From sequence record LR999871: a DNA stretch of 64,000 bases, one strand, 5' to 3'. Shown here piece after piece: positions 18,701 through 52,627 of the stretch (position 1 is the stretch's first letter; every line of letters begins with the position of its first letter). The stretch comes from Escherichia phage vB_Eco_Jura. The position numbers and the translations under genes were made by a program. The notes under the pieces are model-generated. The model did no database searches. It worked only from the letters and a program-made list of their open reading frames with translations, and had not been told where the DNA came from.

Positions 18701-20273
18701 CATCACGAATAGTAACTTCTGCTTCTGGTGCTTGAGCCATAGCTTCTTGTGCTGCCTGTGCAACATAGTCATCAGCAACAGGAGATGCTTCTTCATTCTG
18801 CTTCATAACCCGTTCACCACGAGCTACCAAAGTGTTCTTAATAGGAGAAACAACCTTACCTGCTACACTACCAGCAGCTTTAACACCAGCCATTGTGGTA
18901 CGCAATACAGGAGCAGTTGCAGCACCTGCTAAACGAGCAGCACCAGCCGGAGCCTGTACAACACCAGCAGAACCAAAGCCATAAAGAGCACCTAAACCAG
19001 CTTGTGTACCGACACCTTTAAGCAGGTCTTGGTTCTTATCAATGTTTTGTTGCTGTGCAATATTCTGAGCCAGTTGGCCTGTAGCACCCTGAACACCTTC
19101 TTCCACTGTTTCACGGGCAAGGTTCATACCTACAGCACCTAAAGAACCAGCACGGAAAGGAGCCATCTCAAAACGAGATACTAGAGGACCAGTTGCAGCA
19201 GCAATAGGTAATTGAATAGCAGCAGCAGTAAGACCAGTTTCAGATGCAGTCTGACGACGAGCCTGTTCTGGAGACATACCATCTTTAATATGTTGTTGAT
19301 AAACAGGAGACTTCTCTAAGTCTTTAAGACTCATCTTCATAATTTCATCAGCAGTTTGTTGGTATGCACCACCAGCTTCCATTGCACCAACACCAACCAT
19401 ACCTGGTGCAGCTCTGCCTACAGTAGAAGCAATACGAGCCAGTGACTGAGTACCAGTACCTGCATCAATAGCACCAGCCAATGCAGCACTACGAAGAGTA
19501 TTTGCTGGAACAACTGCTTTACCCAGTAAAGATGCACCCCTTAATACAGGACCAGCACCTAATAGAGAACCTACCCCTTCTGCTAACCCATCAGAAATAA
19601 TAGAGTCAGTTTGAGCAGCGTTCTCAATTGAACCTACAAAATCACGTCCAAATTTAGATAAGGAAGCTACTATGTCATTAGTGCCTTCTTTCTTATCTGT
19701 TTGATACTGACGTTCACTCTCTACTTCACTCATTAAGTTACGAGCAGCAAAGAGCTTACGTTTATCTTGTAATGCTTGGCTTTGGGTAGCATGGACAGCA
19801 TCATTAAACTTACTCAATTGTTGAGCAATGACAGCACCTGCATCATCGTTGAGTAAGCCTGCTCCAAGAGCACCAATGCCCCCAAGGGTATTAACAAAAC
19901 CAAGACCAACACCAGTAGCAATATCCCCCAGTTCTTCCCCAGGAGTTCTTGTAGTAATCGAATCATTGAATACTTGGTTCCCTGCATCAGCACGAGCGTT
20001 GATAAGTTGTAAGCCTTGCTCAACACCATACTTATTCATGATTTGCATTGGAGTCAGATTCATAAAATCTGATTGCACTGTCCCTGGTTCAAATGCATTA
20101 GCCCCAACATTACCAGTACGGGCAGCTTGCATTTGATAAGCAGCATCAGGAGAAACAAGAGGAGTAGTGACACCTTGTTCAGCTTTCTTCTGGGCGGTTG
20201 CAGTAGAGACGTCAACTTGCTTTGCATTGGTTACGCTGTCTGCGAACCCAGCCAGTCTATCAAATACTGACAT
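9771..20273 (-). CDS. virion-encapsidated giant RNA polymerase (N4 vRNAP-type), 3500 aa
   Basis: Track start 20291 is TTG inside the SD; first ATG at 20273 follows AGGAAA, giving exactly 3500 aa. Central region has T7-like motifs: EADGVTNGP (motif A-like), RGIAKNPLTITIYGSG (motif B, R-x3-K-x8-YG), IFDGMN (possible motif C). Confidence 0.85.
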   Translation of the reverse strand: MSVFDRLAGFADSVTNAKQVDVSTATAQKKAEQGVTTPLVSPDAAYQMQAARTGNVGANAFEPGTVQSDFMNLTPMQIMNKYGVEQGLQLINARADAGNQVFNDSITTRTPGEELGDIATGVGLGFVNTLGGIGALGAGLLNDDAGAVIAQQLSKFNDAVHATQSQALQDKRKLFAARNLMSEVESERQYQTDKKEGTNDIVASLSKFGRDFVGSIENAAQTDSIISDGLAEGVGSLLGAGPVLRGASLLGKAVVPANTLRSAALAGAIDAGTGTQSLARIASTVGRAAPGMVGVGAMEAGGAYQQTADEIMKMSLKDLEKSPVYQQHIKDGMSPEQARRQTASETGLTAAAIQLPIAAATGPLVSRFEMAPFRAGSLGAVGMNLARETVEEGVQGATGQLAQNIAQQQNIDKNQDLLKGVGTQAGLGALYGFGSAGVVQAPAGAARLAGAATAPVLRTTMAGVKAAGSVAGKVVSPIKNTLVARGERVMKQNEEASPVADDYVAQAAQEAMAQAPEAEVTIRDAVEATDATPEQKVAAHQYVSDLMNATRFNPENYQEAPEHIRNAVAGSTDQVQVIQKLADLVNTLDESNPQALMEAASYMYDAVSEFEQFINRDPAALDSIPKDSPAIELLNRYTNLTANIQNTPKVIGALNVINRMINESAQNGSLDVTEESSPQEMQNVALAAEVAPEKLNPESVNVVLKHAADGRIKLNNRQIAALQNAAAILKGAREYDAEAARLGLRPQDIVSKQIKTDESRTQEGQYSALQHANRIRSAYNSGNFELASAYLNDFMQFAQHMQNKVGALNEHLVTGNADKNKSVHYQALTADREWVRSRTGLGVNPYDTKSVKFAQQVALEAKTVADIANALASAYPELKVSHIKVTPLDSRLNAPAAEVVKAFRQGNRDVASSQQKADSVNQVKETPVTKQEPVTSTVQTKTPVSEPVKTEPTTKESRPQAIKEPVSQSEKRDVNLTNEDNIKQPTESVKETETSAKESTVTEELKEGIDAVYPSLVGTADSKAEGIKNYFKLSFTLPEEQKSRTVGSEAPLKDVAQALSSRARYELFTEKDVANPAFNGEVIKRYKELMEHGEGIADILRSRLAKFLNTKDVGKRFAQGTEANRWVGGKLLNIVEQDGDTFKYNEQLLQTAVLAGLQWRLTATSNTAIKDAKDVAAITGIDQALLPEGLVEQFDTGMTLTEAVSSLAQKIESYWGLSRNPNAPLGYTKGIPTAMAAEILAAFVESTDVVENIVDMSEIDPDNKKTIGLYTITELDSFDPINSFPTAIEEAVLVNPTEKMFFGDDIPPVANTQLRNPAVRNTPEQKAALKAEQATEFYVHTPMVQFYETLGKDRILELMGAGTLNKELLNDNHAKSLEGKNRSVEDSYNQLFSVIEQVRAQSEDISTVPIHYAYNMTRVGRMQMLGKYNPQSAKLVREAILPTKATLDLSNQNNEDFSAFQLGLAQALDIKVHTMTREVMSDELTKLLEGNLKPAIDMMVEFNTTGSLPENAVDVLNTALGDRKSFVALMALMEYSRYLVAEDKSAFVTPLYVEADGVTNGPINAMMLMTGGLFTPDWIRNIAKGGLFIGSPNKTMNEHRSTADNNDLYQASTNALMESLGKLRSNYASNMPIQSQIDSLLSLMDLFLPDINLGENGALELKRGIAKNPLTITIYGSGARGIAGKLVSSVTDAIYERMSDVLKARAKDPNISAAMAMFGKQAASEAHAEELLARFLKDMETLTSTVPVKRKGVLELQSTGAGAKGKINPKTYTIKGEQLKALQENMLHFFVEPLRNGITQTVGESLVYSTEQLQKATQIQSVVLEDMFKQRVQEKLAEKAKDPTWKKGDFLTQKELNDIQASLNNLAPMIETGSQTFYIAGSENAEVANQVLATNLDDRMRVPMSIYAPAQAGVAGIPFMTIGTGDGMMMQTLSTMKGAPKNTLKIFDGMNIGLNDITDASRKANEAVYTSWQGNPIKNVYESYAKFMKNVDFSKLSPEALEAIGKSALEYDQRENATVDDIANAASLIERNLRNIALGVDIRHKVLNKVNLSIDQMAAVGAPYQNNGKIDLSNMTPEQQADELNKLFREELEARKQKVAKAKAEVKEEIVSEKEPVNPDFGMVGREHKASGVRILSATAIRNLAKISNLPSTQAATLAEIQKSLAAKDYKIIYGTPTQVAEYARQKNVTELTSQEMEEAQAGNIYGWTNFDDKTIYLVSPSMETLIHELVHASTFEEVYSFYQGNEVSPTSKQAIENLEGLMEQFRSLDISKDSPEMREAYVDAIATIEGHLSNGFVDPAISKAAALNEFMAWGLANRALAAKQKRTSSLVQMVKDVYQAIKKLIWGRKQAPALGEDMFSNLLFNSAILMRSQPTTQAVAKDGTLFHSKAYGNNERLSQLNQTFDKLVTDYLRTDPVTEVERRGNVANALMSATRLVRDVQSRGFNMTAQEQSVFQMVTAALATEAAIDPHAMARAQELYTHVMKHLTVEHFMADPDSTNPADRYYAQQKYDTISGANLVEVDAKGRTSLLPTFLGLAMVNEELRSIIKEMPVPKADKKLGNDVDTLLTNAGTQVMESLNRRMAGDQKATNVQDSIDALSETIMAAALKRESFYDAVATPTGNFIDRANQYVMDSIERLSETVIEKADKVIANPSNVAAKGVAHLAKLTAAIASEKQGEIVAQGVMTAMNQGKVWQPFHDLVNDIVGRTKTNANVYDLIKLVKSQISQDRQQFREHLPTVIAGKFSRKLTDTEWSAMHTGLGKTDLAVLRETMSMAEIRDLLSSSKKVKDEISTLEKEIQNQAGRNWNLVQKKSKQLAQYMITGEVGNNLLRNAHAISRLLGERITNSPVADVAAIDKLTTLYSLELMNKSDRDLLSELAQSEVEGMEFSIAYMVGQRTEEMRKAKGDNRTLLNHFKGYIPVENQQGVNLIIADDKEFAKLNSQSFTRIGTYQGSTGFRTGSKGYYFSPVAARAPYSQGILQNVRNTAGGVDIGTGFTLGTMVAGRITDKPTVERITKALAKGERGREPLMPIYNSKGQVVAYEQSVDPNMLKHLNQDNHFAKMVGVWRGRQVEEAKAQRFNDILIEQLHAMYEKDIKDSSANKSQYVNLLGKIDDPVLADAINLMNIETRRKAEELFGKDELWVRRDMLNDALGYRAASIGDVWTGNSRWSPSTLDTVKKMFLGAFGNKAYHVVMNAENTIQNLVKDAKTVIVVKSVVVPAVNFLANIYQMIGRGVPVKDIAVNIPRKTSEINQYIKSRLRQIDAEAELRAAEGNPNLVRKLKTEIQSITDSHRRMSIWPLIEAGEFSSIADAGISRDDLLVAEGKIHEYMEKLANKLPEKVRNAGRYALIAKDTALFQGIQKTVEYSDFIAKAIIYDDLVKRKKKSSSEALGQVTEEFVNYDRLPGRFRGYMESMGLMWFYNFKIRSIKVAMSMIRNNPVHSLIATVVPAPAMFGNVGLPIQDNMLTMLAEGRLDYSLGFGQGLRAPTLNPWFNLTH

Positions 20274-20336
20274 AGTAGGTTTCCTATACAAACTTATATC
20301 TATTAGAAATCACACTATACCTAGTGTAAGGACGAG

Positions 20337-47921: not shown

Positions 47922-47925
47922 ATAG

Positions 47926-47956
47926 GAGGGGGCTACTAAGCCCTCTTCTTATTTTT
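47926..47956 (+). terminator. terminator candidate
   Basis: GC-rich stem GAGGG/CCCTC around a 10-nt loop, then TTCTTATTTTT. Confidence 0.4.
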
Positions 47957-47994: not shown

Positions 47995-48210
47995 ATGGAA
48001 CAGTTAAACTACGGTTATAAGATTAAACGCAATCAAGTAAGAGGTTCTTGGTTATTTCTCGTTTATGGTAAACCAATCTATGAATTACATCGTGGAGAGA
48101 AATCCAAGACCTATTACGTAACTCATATTGCTACAGGAAAAACTCCTGCATGTGCAGGATTGCTTCGTGATGCAATTATGAAAGCATGTATGTTAGAAGG
48201 ACTTCTATGA
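47995..48210 (+). CDS. early protein (71 aa)
   Basis: ATG preceded by GAGGAAGGA. Confidence 0.55.
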   Translation: MEQLNYGYKIKRNQVRGSWLFLVYGKPIYELHRGEKSKTYYVTHIATGKTPACAGLLRDAIMKACMLEGLL

Positions 48211-48521
48211 ACCAAATCATTGCTATCCCGCAGCATAAAGCTCGTATTGCTGACAGGAATATTCGTATTCATTATCCAATGCCTTTGAGTAATCCATTTC
48301 AGAAAAATGAGAGAACCACGGATGAAGATATAGCAGCAGCTTATGAGGCATATCTTCGTAACCGTTTGGTAAGTGGTGACAAGCTCATTACGGCTGAAAT
48401 GGAACGAATTGCTAAATTCGTTATAGATGATACTGACAAACCCGTTGGCCTCATTGGTAATGAACTGGAAGTGAATGTAATCCGTAAGATTATTATGGAG
48501 GCTCTTAATGGGAATCAGTGA
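48207..48521 (+). CDS. early protein (104 aa)
   Basis: Track start 48186 trimmed to the ATG at 48207, which follows AGAAGGA and overlaps the upstream stop (ATGA). Confidence 0.55.
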   Translation: MNQIIAIPQHKARIADRNIRIHYPMPLSNPFQKNERTTDEDIAAAYEAYLRNRLVSGDKLITAEMERIAKFVIDDTDKPVGLIGNELEVNVIRKIIMEALNGNQ

Positions 48522-48684
48522 ATCCCAGGCTATGGCTATTAAACAGTTAGCCTTCAACTGCCTTAGTGCTATGAAGGCATTTAATGAAGCAAAAACTTTC
48601 CCTGACCAGAATAAAGCTCGTATTCGACTTTATCAGTCTAAGAAAGATTTTGAAGAATATCTGGAAAGTATTACGGTGAAATAA
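48508..48684 (+). CDS. candidate small protein (58 aa), absent from the ORF track
   Basis: ATG 7 nt after GGAGG; fills the gap between annotated ORFs; stop overlaps the next ATG (TAATG). Confidence 0.45.
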   Translation: MGISESQAMAIKQLAFNCLSAMKAFNEAKTFPDQNKARIRLYQSKKDFEEYLESITVK

Positions 48685-49004
48685 TGAAAACAATATTAAT
48701 TGTTCATGATGCTGATTTTAATGATGTTGATAAAATGATGCGTAATATTGATTATGTAGCTCAGACAACTCCAGCATTTAAAGAAGAATTTACTCTATAT
48801 TGTGATGCTAATTCACCATTAGTTCCCATTCTGAAAGAAGCTGGTTTACCCTTCTCTACAGATAATTTCCCTGAAGAACCTGATTATGTAATTTCATTTA
48901 TTTATGACTTACATGATGGCTCAGAACCAAGTGAATTGACTATGAGTCAATGGAAATCCAGAAGACCTGTATATGCATTTCAGGTAGTTAAATCAAGGAG
49001 TTAA
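48684..49004 (+). CDS. early protein (106 aa)
   Basis: ATG in a TAATG overlap; no motif recognised. Confidence 0.55.
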   Translation: MKTILIVHDADFNDVDKMMRNIDYVAQTTPAFKEEFTLYCDANSPLVPILKEAGLPFSTDNFPEEPDYVISFIYDLHDGSEPSELTMSQWKSRRPVYAFQVVKSRS

Positions 49005-49006
49005 CT

Positions 49007-49375
49007 ATGTTAGGTGATAACACTAATGCTCTGTTTGGAGTGTCAGCCAGACCTATTATCATTGTTAATAAACATCATGGTAAAAAGGGTGAATATATTG
49101 GGCGTGGTTCTCCTCTGGGTAATCCATTCGTTATTGGTAAAGATGGAACCAGAGAAGAAGTAATTGCCAAATATAAAGTATGGCTACAAGAACAGATTGA
49201 TAAAGGTAATCCAGTTGTACTGGATGAATTAAATCGTCTTGGTAATAAAGCCATTGATGAAAAAGGATTAGCTTTACAGTGCTTCTGTTATCCAAAACCT
49301 TGTCATGGCGAGGTTATTAAAGAGAAGTTAGTAAAAGCTATGTATAACTACTTTGTGGAAAATCCTAATGGATAA
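49007..49375 (+). CDS. DUF4326-like protein (GNP motif), 122 aa
   Basis: ATG preceded by AAGGAG; YIGRGSPLGNPF ... QCFCYPKPCHGEV matches the DUF4326 hallmark as I recall it (Gly-Asn-Pro motif plus C-terminal Cys/His cluster). Confidence 0.5.
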   Translation: MLGDNTNALFGVSARPIIIVNKHHGKKGEYIGRGSPLGNPFVIGKDGTREEVIAKYKVWLQEQIDKGNPVVLDELNRLGNKAIDEKGLALQCFCYPKPCHGEVIKEKLVKAMYNYFVENPNG

Positions 49376-49553
49376 ACAATGCAAATGTGGTAAAGGCTAT
49401 GTATCCCAATGGGATGGTAAATGTGGTCATTGTAGAACCAAGAAAGAACAACGTGACCATGAATATGCACTTCAGGAAATGATTGTACCTGTTGAGAATT
49501 TAGGTATGGCTCCACTTGAGGCTTACAAATACATAAGGAGATTATGCAAATGA
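49368..49553 (+). CDS. small zinc-ribbon protein (61 aa)
   Basis: Track TTG start trimmed to the ATG at 49368; MDKQCKCGKGYVSQWDGKCGHCRTKK has a C-x-C ... C-x2-C arrangement. Confidence 0.45.
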   Translation: MDKQCKCGKGYVSQWDGKCGHCRTKKEQRDHEYALQEMIVPVENLGMAPLEAYKYIRRLCK

Positions 49554-49930
49554 AAGAAGTATTCGTATTTGGTTCTAACCTTGCTGGTGTACATGGTGCA
49601 GGTGCTGCAAAGACAGCATATAAGAAACATGGAGCCAGATGGGGTAAAGGGCATGGTCATTATGGTGACAGCTACGCTATTCCCACTAAAGATACCAATA
49701 TCAAAACGATGACTATTGAAGACATTCGTACATTTGTAAACGCCTTCATTGTCTATGCTGCTAATCATCCAGAACTTAACTTTAAAGTTACTCGTGTAGG
49801 TTGTGGATTAGCTGGTATTGATGATTCTGTTATGGCCTCTATGTTTGAAAATGCCACTGATAACTGTTCCTTTGACTTAGCATGGAAAAGTTACTTAGGG
49901 GATGATTTCAACTACTGGGGAACGTTCTAA
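49544..49930 (+). CDS. hypothetical protein with N-terminal glycine-rich loop (128 aa)
   Basis: ATG preceded by AGGAG; N-terminus VFVFGSNLAGVHGAGAAKTA...GDSYAIPTK looks like a beta-strand plus Gly-rich nucleotide-binding loop; family not resolved. Confidence 0.5.
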   Translation: MQMKEVFVFGSNLAGVHGAGAAKTAYKKHGARWGKGHGHYGDSYAIPTKDTNIKTMTIEDIRTFVNAFIVYAANHPELNFKVTRVGCGLAGIDDSVMASMFENATDNCSFDLAWKSYLGDDFNYWGTF

Positions 49931-49947: not shown

Positions 49948-49968
49948 AAGCTGCTCCGCAGCTTTTGG
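49948..49968 (+). promoter_or_regulatory. hairpin promoter candidate 3 (virion-RNAP type), upstream of the RNAP subunit genes
   Basis: AAGCTGC-TCC-GCAGCTT (7-bp stem, 3-nt loop) then TTGG; core GCTCCGC-AG-CTTTTGG; 37 nt before the ATG at 50005. Confidence 0.45.
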
Positions 49969-50004: not shown

Positions 50005-50817
50005 ATGTCTACTATCGAACATCAGATGCACCTCGAAAAGCTGTACAACAAGAACCAACTGTTACCAAGAATGCGTCAGGAGTTTGAAGAAAACTCTGGT
50101 ATTGATTTCAAAGCCTTCTTTGCACATATAGGCATTGATTACAAATTTGGCATTGATGCAATGGTTCAAATGGCTCTGCATAAGCGAGCTGACCTACCAA
50201 CATTAGTTGGTACATTGCGTCATCATTGCAAATCTGCACAGGAAGTAGCAGACAACCTTTTTAAGATGGCAAGTGAGGATTGCTTTAACTTTGACCCGAC
50301 CATCGACAAGTTCATTGTCATTTATACAATCAGCGATGACGTACAGCATGAACTGGATTCATTTCAATATCCACTACCTATGGTAGTACGTCCTAAGCTG
50401 TTAACTAAGAATTATGGTACTGGGTACTTCACATGTAATAAGAGTGTGATTCTTAAGAAGAACCATACTGACGATGACATCTGCTTAGACCATCTGAACC
50501 GTATGAACAAGATTCCATTGTCTATCAATTGGGATGTAGCTCATATGGTTAAAAATGAATGGGCTAATCTGGATAAACCGAAAGAAGGTGAAACTCGTCA
50601 GGAGTTTGAAAAACGTGTACGTGCATTCCAGAAATATGACCGTACTGCACATGAAGTAATGGGTTTATTGACCCAGGAAGGCAATAAGTTCTATCTGACT
50701 CATCGTCCGGATAAACGTGGTCGTACCTATTGCCAAGGTTATCATGTAACATACCAGGGAACTTCTTGGTGTAAAGCCGTGATTGAACTTGCTGATAAGG
50801 AACTTATCAATGATTAA
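50005..50817 (+). CDS. phage RNA polymerase, small (N-terminal-type) subunit, 270 aa
   Basis: ATG preceded by GGAGAA. Assigned from its pairing with the catalytic-subunit gene downstream and the 270/404-aa sizes I recall for the N4 two-subunit enzyme; no catalytic motif expected here. Confidence 0.55.
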   Translation: MSTIEHQMHLEKLYNKNQLLPRMRQEFEENSGIDFKAFFAHIGIDYKFGIDAMVQMALHKRADLPTLVGTLRHHCKSAQEVADNLFKMASEDCFNFDPTIDKFIVIYTISDDVQHELDSFQYPLPMVVRPKLLTKNYGTGYFTCNKSVILKKNHTDDDICLDHLNRMNKIPLSINWDVAHMVKNEWANLDKPKEGETRQEFEKRVRAFQKYDRTAHEVMGLLTQEGNKFYLTHRPDKRGRTYCQGYHVTYQGTSWCKAVIELADKELIND

Positions 50818-51319
50818 AGACAGAATGCCTATGGGTTACTGGAACAAACCAATAGAAGAATTAGCAATAGCTCACCCAAAAGAAGCTGCTAATAGTGCTA
50901 GTGGTTACATACGTATATCCAGAAACAATAGGATTCATTATTTACATCGTTGGTTGTGGGAACAAAAACATGGTGCTATCCCTGCTGGACACACCATTGA
51001 CCATCTTAATGGAATCCGGACTGATTGCCGTTGGGAAAACATGCGTTGTATCCCTTGGGCAATTAACTTACGTAATAGTACAAAGCGTGCTGATAACACG
51101 TCAGGAGTAACAGGTGTCTCACTATGGAAATCTCCAAAAGGAGTGTTCTGGAGAGCAACTTGTACTGACAACTTAACAGGAAAACAACGATGTAAGGTGT
51201 TTTCCATAAATAAATACGGTTACAACTTTGCATTTGAATTAGCATGTGATGCTCGTGCCGATATGATTGAACGCCTGAACCAACAAGGTGCAGGTTATAC
51301 CGACCGTCACGGTCAATAA
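50810..51319 (+). CDS. HNH homing endonuclease with AP2-like DNA-binding domain
   Basis: Track start 50783 trimmed to the ATG at 50810 (after AAGGA, overlapping the upstream stop). HNH core GHTIDHLNGIRTDCRWENMRCIPWAINLRN; C-terminal SGVTGVSLWKSPKGVFWRA is AP2-like. Confidence 0.75.
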   Translation: MIKDRMPMGYWNKPIEELAIAHPKEAANSASGYIRISRNNRIHYLHRWLWEQKHGAIPAGHTIDHLNGIRTDCRWENMRCIPWAINLRNSTKRADNTSGVTGVSLWKSPKGVFWRATCTDNLTGKQRCKVFSINKYGYNFAFELACDARADMIERLNQQGAGYTDRHGQ

Positions 51320-52588: not shown

Positions 52589-52594
52589 TAACTA

Positions 52595-52627
52595 AGGCTA
52601 TCCCTACGGGGGTAGCCTTTATTTTTT
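52595..52627 (+). terminator. strong rho-independent terminator after the RNAP genes
   Basis: 10-bp stem AGGCTATCCC/GGGGGTAGCCT (one G-U), loop TACG, then TTATTTTTTT. Confidence 0.7.

Follow-up and report, generated by a model that had tools for sequence, protein, structure and literature searches.

A predicted compact macrodomain encoded with a DUF4326 protein and a zinc-ribbon protein in the N4-type coliphage vB_Eco_Jura

A stretch of 64,000 nucleotides from Escherichia phage vB_Eco_Jura (LR999871; hereafter the window) carries three overlapping genes at 49007–49930 that correspond to gp12, gp13 and gp14 of coliphage N4. The product of the third, gp14, is assigned firmly by structure prediction to the macrodomain fold, as a minimal or compact macrodomain of the TARG1/DarG type. 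The genes before it encode a member of the family DUF4326 (gp12) and a zinc-ribbon protein (gp13). We lean, with moderate confidence, towards a joint reading in which gp14 is an early ADP-ribose (ADPr) eraser of the TARG1/DarG type, with single-stranded DNA (ssDNA) modified by DarT2 as its likeliest substrate, gp12 is a phosphate-processing partner and gp13 is a possible adaptor. The gp14-type family is large, and DUF4326 is likewise present in many phage genomes.

Results

Structure prediction, which the original prediction for this locus had suggested, was run on gp14 and gp12. The AlphaFold2 model of gp14, built with 38 homologues, has a pLDDT of 93.7 and a pTM of 0.88 and displays the three-layer alpha/beta/alpha architecture of the macro fold. 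Foldseek placed BT1257, TARG1 and DarG at the top of its matches (E 7e-4 to 1e-2, TM 0.5–0.65). Two glycine-rich loops, SNLAGVHGAGAA (loop 1, residues 11–22) and VGCGLAG (loop 2, residues 85–91), are nearly invariant in the family, and both align with the ADP-ribose loops of AdfM and TARG1. The usual ligand of a macrodomain is ADP-ribose, and macrodomains are usually hydrolases. From the sequence motifs FGSNLAGVHGAGAA and YAIPT, the original prediction had read a nucleotide-binding glycine loop and had hinted at NAD-derived ligands, ADP-ribose among them. Both motifs are present, and the hint pointed in the right direction, as gp14 is now a predicted binder of a nucleotide-type ligand. The model and its macrodomain matches, however, make FGSNLAGVHGAGAA loop 1 of a macrodomain rather than a generic P-loop or Rossmann loop.

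By sequence, gp14 belongs to NCBIfam NF049995 (A1S_2505 family N-terminal domain; E 1.4e-45, 154 bits against a cut-off of 45, model positions 1–109 of 109) and to phrog_2072 (E 2.4e-57). No Pfam model at all matches it. Searches of PDB sequences with phmmer and two family profiles returned nothing significant; TARG1 appeared at E 0.37, and the broader profile found no macrodomain. Because these sequence routes were not significant, the macrodomain assignment rests on the predicted structure together with motif alignment.

The phiKZ gp104 (AdfM) protein used for comparison was translated from the sequence in the methods section of PMC13309987. Over 100 columns it aligns with the profile of the gp14 family at 25% identity, with an hhalign E-value of 5.7e-4, which is a pairwise value accompanied by an HH probability of just 29%. 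In this alignment N12 pairs with N23, K49 with K78 and GCGLAG with GCANGG. N12 of gp14 falls at the position of the loop 1 active-site Asn (DarG N22, AdfM N23) and K49 at that of the catalytic Lys shared by TARG1 (K84), DarG (K80) and AdfM (K78); a weak profile alignment with TARG1 also sets K49 on K84, and Ala90 on Asp125. In DarG and AdfM, the equivalents of N12 and K49 have been assigned to the active site (PMC13309987). In a set of 156 domains, drawn from the query and 150 listed cluster representatives, S11 and N12 are each kept in 153, H17 in 154, T48 in 151, K49 in 137 and N107 in 150. The near-invariance of N12, H17, T48, K49 and N107 makes a conservation pattern that fits an enzyme. 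H17 is specific to the gp14 family, AdfM having Met at the equivalent position.

The first gene of the trio, gp12 (49007–49375, plus strand, 122 amino acids), matches the whole of Pfam DUF4326 (PF14216) at E 9.4e-23, with 81.1 bits against a gathering threshold of 25, so that its description as DUF4326-like stands. The invariant motifs of the family, GRGS-x2-GNP and C-x-C-x-P-x2-CHG[DE], have all their invariant residues in gp12, with D102 replaced by Glu; they take in the GNPF sequence and the C92/C94/C99/H100 cluster that had been picked out from the sequence before. The predicted fold is closest to RapZ's C-terminal domain (RapZ-CTD) and to PTP-like phosphatases. A canonical C-X5-R signature is absent: in C92-F-C94-Y-P-K-P-C99-H100-G-E no Arg stands six residues after any Cys, and the invariant Arg of gp12, R33, sits in a different loop from the Cys cluster. 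We propose that gp12 is a catalytically competent DUF4326 enzyme; its modelled fold is phosphatase-like and of a phosphate-binding kind. An in silico study places DUF4326 in a rhodanese-phosphatase clade predicted to act on ribose-linked phosphates of ADPr (PMC9503650), and the domain has been reported fused to, or adjoining, Macro and SLOG domains (PMC9503650, PMC7824862).

As a query, gp12 gave only homologues of at least 89% identity, and the wider DUF4326 search was seeded from the DUF4326 half of a fusion protein, P0310. In P0310, DUF4326 (2–89) is followed by a macrodomain (97–225), the same order as gp12 and gp14. A second DUF4326-macro fusion is encoded in a Lysobacter contig (L145), and in locus L019 a weak match of DprA type (SLOG superfamily) is joined to DUF4326 in a protein encoded 1.3 kb upstream of a gp14-type gene. 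About 900 phage genomes carry DUF4326, to which databases often give the mistaken name 'NrdA-like'.

The middle gene, gp13 (49368–49553, plus strand, starting with the ATG at 49368), encodes 61 amino acids and matches phrog_13804 (E 7e-36). Its four Cys residues (C5, C7, C19 and C22, in CxC and CxxC pairs) are invariant in 10 homologues, which upholds its reading as a zinc ribbon, and the whole motif CxCGKGY-x-S-x-WD-x2-C-x2-CRT is unchanged in all ten. In the same 10 of 10, the end of the gene abuts or overlaps the start of a gp14-type gene, and the coupling is also seen in Klebsiella N4-like phages at 46% gp13 identity. This conserved gene arrangement suggests that gp13 has a role together with gp14, for which it may be a translationally coupled adaptor. 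T7-like and Vectrevirus phages share only the N-terminal ribbon with gp13.

The window comes from an N4-type coliphage. About 1.5 kb around 49007–49930 matches N4 and its closest relatives at 98–99% identity, and over the stretch of the trio the identity to N4 gp11–gp15 is 98–99%. All three open reading frames (ORFs) are where they had been placed, on the plus strand. Given this identity, the Pfam, PHROG (gp12 E 2.5e-39) and NCBIfam matches and the homologues in phage records (893 for gp12, 112 for gp13 and 401 for gp14), there is no doubt from the sequence that these are genuine genes and not chance ORFs. The genes gp12 and gp13 overlap by 8 nucleotides (nt), and gp13 and gp14 by 4–10 nt depending on where gp14 starts. 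The frame drawn for gp14 (49544–49930, plus strand) encodes 128 amino acids, but the second ATG, at 49550, is the more likely start judging by sequence (126 amino acids): a Shine-Dalgarno sequence AAGGAG (49535–49540) lies 9 nt 5' of it, homologues begin MKE... and the N4 annotation agrees. Starting there gives an ATGA overlap with gp13.

Beyond N4, the gp14 family, also listed as A1S_2505 or 'N4 gp14-like', is widely distributed. Searches up to E 1e-3 gave 4235 clusters at 50% identity, and at 90% identity there are at least 8000. The 401 phage records come from Schitoviridae, some jumbo phages and Rhodobacter phages, and the hosts of the Schitoviridae include Escherichia, Klebsiella, Pseudomonas, Achromobacter, Erwinia, rhizobia and roseobacters. 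The 'N4 gp14-like protein' is a long-standing listing without a function (PMC2784036), and other labels in use are 'macrodomain protein' (AlfredRasser), 'ADP-ribosylglycohydrolase' (AL25 and KP8) and 'Macro domain_Poa1p family'. The earlier statement that none of the three proteins has an assigned role is correct as regards experiment, as we found no paper testing N4 gp12–14. It is too strong for the databases and the wider literature, which hold macrodomain and ADP-ribosylglycohydrolase labels, an NCBIfam model and a published prediction for DUF4326 (PMC9503650). In two Rhodobacter phages, RcMrWorf (L089, 2001–2369) and RcZahn (L090, 1971–2360), stand-alone gp14-type macrodomains are labelled 'ADP-ribosyltransferase'; this is almost certainly a mis-annotation, the fold being that of an eraser or reader and not a writer.

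Among the longer representatives of the family, gp14-type domains are fused to SLOG/YAcAr (4), NADAR (2), WYL_2 (2) and DUF4326 (1). In bacterial genomes the fusions are to ADP_ribosyl_GH (3) and YAcAr (2), plus DUF1810, DUF4326 and WYL_2. We also sampled 110 genes immediately beside a gp14-type gene in 58 bacterial loci (set L091–L170). Neither DarT nor another ADP-ribosyltransferase (ART) figures in the 25 most frequent of the 94 neighbour families, and no DarT or ART lies beside gp14-type genes in the phage regions viewed. DUF7666 is the sole unrelated neighbour family to recur (4 of 110).

In the N4 record the trio follows gp11 and directly precedes gp15 and gp16, the genes for both subunits of the phage's RNA polymerase II (RNAP II). 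The gp11 gene (48684–49004, plus strand, 106 amino acids, phrog_7827) is directly upstream of gp12 across Enquatrovirinae-type loci. The N-terminus of its product resembles a beta-alpha-beta Rossmannoid start. A degenerate SLOG domain in this place would complete a SLOG-DUF4326-Macro triad; we rejected this candidate, hhalign giving a probability of 1.3% against SLOG/YAcAr. Three genes upstream of gp12, gp9 (48186–48521, plus strand) is a degenerate second DUF4326 paralogue (phrog_464 E 1.7e-20; custom DUF4326 hidden Markov model E 2.6e-13) that is conserved as gp9 in N4 and Bp4. Because it has no equivalents of R33 or of the Cys/His cluster (C92, C94, C99 and H100), its sequence marks it as probably non-catalytic. 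The PADLOC defence models gave no match for any of the five proteins searched.

The block gp8–gp16 is flanked by terminator-like hairpins at 47924–47949 and 52594–52619. Between gp14 and gp15, at 49948–49964 on the plus strand, lies the hairpin AAGCTGC-TCC-GCAGCTT, with a 7-bp stem, a 3-nt loop and a following TTGG. The trio had been described as just upstream of 'hairpin motif copy 3', which is this hairpin. Its sequence has no second copy in the window when up to 3 mismatches are allowed. An intrinsic-terminator scan did not call it, and a promoter hairpin for the virion RNA polymerase (vRNAP) and a terminator are both candidates for what it is.

Between gp15 and gp16 an ORF at 50783–51319 (plus strand) encodes a homing endonuclease with HNH_3 and AP2 domains. 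The gp15–gp16 gap is short in N4, AL25 and AlfredRasser (47 nt in N4 and AlfredRasser), and the insert was found in none of 50,697 phage genomes. Identity in the flanking ends of gp15 and gp16 drops to about 89–90%, against 98–99% nearby, in what looks like a co-conversion tract. At a distance from the trio, 9251–9736 (plus strand) encodes a 161-residue protein with a domain resembling Tad2 (Thoeris anti-defence 2; Pfam E 8e-24), adjoining the vRNAP gene (9771–20291, minus strand). This region is the 'anti-signalling hot spot' described for N4-like phages (bioRxiv 10.64898/2026.06.04.730250). We rejected the hot spot as an explanation of the trio, for it lies between the primase and vRNAP genes and not at gp12–gp14.

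Discussion

If gp14 works as an eraser, its two glycine-rich loops, GxHGxGAA and GCGLAG, would bind ADP-ribose, and N12 and K49 would most likely release it by hydrolysis from a modified macromolecule at an early stage of infection. Host-imposed ADP-ribosylation would thereby be removed. By analogy with phage AdfM, our best single guess for the substrate is DarT2-type thymidine-ADPr on ssDNA. We make it because two unrelated phage macrodomains, phiKZ gp104 and T4 Tk.4, have been reported to counter DarTG2 (PMC13309987; bioRxiv 10.1101/2025.11.20.689424); for phiKZ gp104, an in vitro assay addressed the removal of ADPr from DNA (PMC13309987). The partner protein, gp12, would probably process ribose-linked phosphate on the same ADPr-derived substrate or on its product. 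N4 exposes much ssDNA, both in the hairpin promoters used by vRNAP and in the ssDNA templates of RNAP II. Early expression is indicated indirectly by the place of the trio ahead of the RNAP II genes and by notes on RNA-seq data in the PEV2 record, where the gp14 homologue is called early-transcribed. What the analysis establishes are the gene identities, the predicted folds, the motif conservation and the domain associations; hydrolase activity, its substrate, an anti-defence role and cooperation among gp12, gp13 and gp14 are inferences, and an anti-defence or host-takeover role is plausible.

Several observations weigh against this reading. At the level of sequence, Pfam Macro (PF01661) does not match gp14 at E up to 0.1, gp14 profiles reach PDB sequences only at E 0.2–0.4, and, besides the low HH probability of the phiKZ match, close kinship with the T4 AdfM (Tk.4) had to be rejected (hhalign probability 0.9%). 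In the active site, K49 is substituted in 12% of family domains, and the co-catalytic Asp125 of TARG1 is replaced by Ala90, Ala being found there in 145 of 156 domains; AdfM carries Asn at this position, and thus Asp125 is not general to the TARG1/DarG/AdfM group. Unlike DarG, gp14 is a single domain of 126–128 residues without a C-terminal DarT-binding domain. No conserved partner recurred among the 110 immediate bacterial neighbours, and the fusion partners SLOG, NADAR and ARH suit the processing of small-molecule ADPr equally well as erasure from macromolecules. As for the link with DUF4326, of 80 IMG/VR loci containing a gp14-type gene 16 have DUF4326 encoded within 4 kb upstream, on the same strand, but this figure is inflated and does not count independent events, since most are N4-like contigs with shared ancestry. 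The adjacency is absent in PEV2, DSS3phi2 and MIJ3, and in T4-like phages DUF4326 is NrdA.1, beside the ribonucleotide reductase genes nrdA and nrdB.

The main rival, possible but in our judgement rather unlikely, is that gp14 and gp12 act on small diffusible ADPr derivatives and not on macromolecules. Their candidate substrates are ADPr-1''-phosphate (Poa1p being the precedent), O-acetyl-ADPr, and immune signals in which ADPr is cyclic or linked to histidine. The macrodomain would either hydrolyse the ADPr moiety or retain it and DUF4326 would strip the ribose-linked phosphate, blunting Thoeris-like signalling or feeding NAD+ salvage; we give this scheme the same minority chance. It would accord with the assignment of SLOG, NADAR, ADP_ribosyl_GH and DUF4326, all fusion partners of gp14-type domains, to low-molecular-weight ADPr networks (PMC9503650), and with the resemblance of the predicted gp12 fold to phosphate-binding and phosphatase domains. 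Against it, the nearest folds and the conserved Asn and Lys of gp14 are those of the macromolecule erasers TARG1 and DarG, and a Tad2-like gcADPR sponge is already encoded at 9251–9736. A sponge function has also to be considered for gp14 itself, which might be a non-catalytic reader that sequesters an ADPr signal or docks on an ADP-ribosylated host protein. Many macrodomains are binders only, gp14 is small (126–128 amino acids) and abundant in phages, and its Ala at the Asp125 position would agree with such a role. We think it improbable, because residues of catalytic type are conserved (N12 in 153, H17 in 154 and K49 in 137 of 156 domains), N12 and K49 coincide with the DarG and AdfM active-site residues (PMC13309987), and fusions to the hydrolases ARH and NADAR suggest an enzymatic pathway.

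Two further explanations place the trio in the phage's own economy. It could serve nucleotide or DNA metabolism, with DUF4326 acting, for instance, on a phosphorylated nucleotide or sugar intermediate tied to ribonucleotide reduction and gp14 clearing an ADPr-type by-product. The NrdA.1 position in T4-like phages is what would be expected, and roseophage DSS3phi2 has its gp14 homologue three genes ahead of ribonucleotide reductase. Among N4 and related phages, however, the genes lie in the early block before RNAP II, away from replication genes; the domain fusions indicate ADPr networks, and the literature examined reports neither gene as core or essential. We regard this explanation as still less probable than a sponge. 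Least probable of all is that gp14 is an eraser for an ART of the phage itself, limiting or timing the ADP-ribosylation of host targets. Writer-eraser pairs are common. Among viral ARTs, the literature describes an 'N4-like' family whose members are often packaged in the virion (PMC9503650). Pfam found no ART domain in 48 other window proteins, a scan that left out vRNAP and about 7 kb of genome beyond the window; the 'ADP-ribosyltransferase' labels on the Rhodobacter phage homologues belong to a stand-alone macrodomain; and in the loci examined no ART is fused to, or lies beside, a gp14-type gene.

Returning to the eraser reading, its most elaborate form would make the trio an early repair module suited to the unusual reliance of N4 on ssDNA: gp13 would recruit gp14 to ssDNA or RNA bearing ADP-ribose, gp14 would take the mark off and gp12 would clear the phosphorylated ribose remnant. 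We allow this full scheme only a very slim chance. Were it true, DUF4326 would gain a first biochemical role, and counter-defences against DarT or CmdT would include a new class, conserved across Schitoviridae. If gp14 is an ADPr eraser, ADP-ribosylating defences such as DarTG or CmdTAC would meet a ready-made counter in N4-like phages, of which several are candidates for therapy. Cooperation of gp12 with gp14, if it occurs, would let the repeated pairing and fusion of the two domains hint at a first substrate class for DUF4326. The question is tractable, as N4 genetics is workable and assays with DarT-modified DNA exist.

In relation to known systems, the trio consists of ordinary members of catalogued families and is not a new kind of system. 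What is added here is a fold assignment for gp12 and gp14, the correspondence of Asn and Lys between gp14 and AdfM/DarG, the evidence of fusion and linkage between DUF4326 and the macrodomain, and the strict coupling of gp13 and gp14. Within NF049995 and phrog_2072, gp14 is a full-length member with no structural difference, and the family name carries no function. A DarTG system comprises an adjacent DarT and a DarT-binding domain, and gp14 has neither. Its best Foldseek matches are human TARG1 (OARD1) and Bacteroides BT1257 (E about 7e-4, TM 0.5–0.65): AIPTK of gp14 aligns with YLITK of TARG1 (K84), and RIGCGLAG with RIGCGLDR, whereas Asp125 of TARG1 is Ala90 in gp14 and the sequence E-value is 0.37. 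For TARG1 the substrates are Glu- or Asp-linked ADPr on proteins and O-acetyl-ADP-ribose (OAADPr). Compared with AdfM (phiKZ gp104, T4 Tk.4), gp14 is about 35 residues shorter, and Pfam Macro detects T4 Tk.4 but misses gp14. In sequence, gp14 shares with AdfM and DarG2 the loop 1 pattern N-x2-G-V-x-G-A-G-x-A, the PTKD motif and the loop 2 pattern GC-x2-G-G. Like AdfM, gp14 is a stand-alone phage protein that occurs without a toxin partner.
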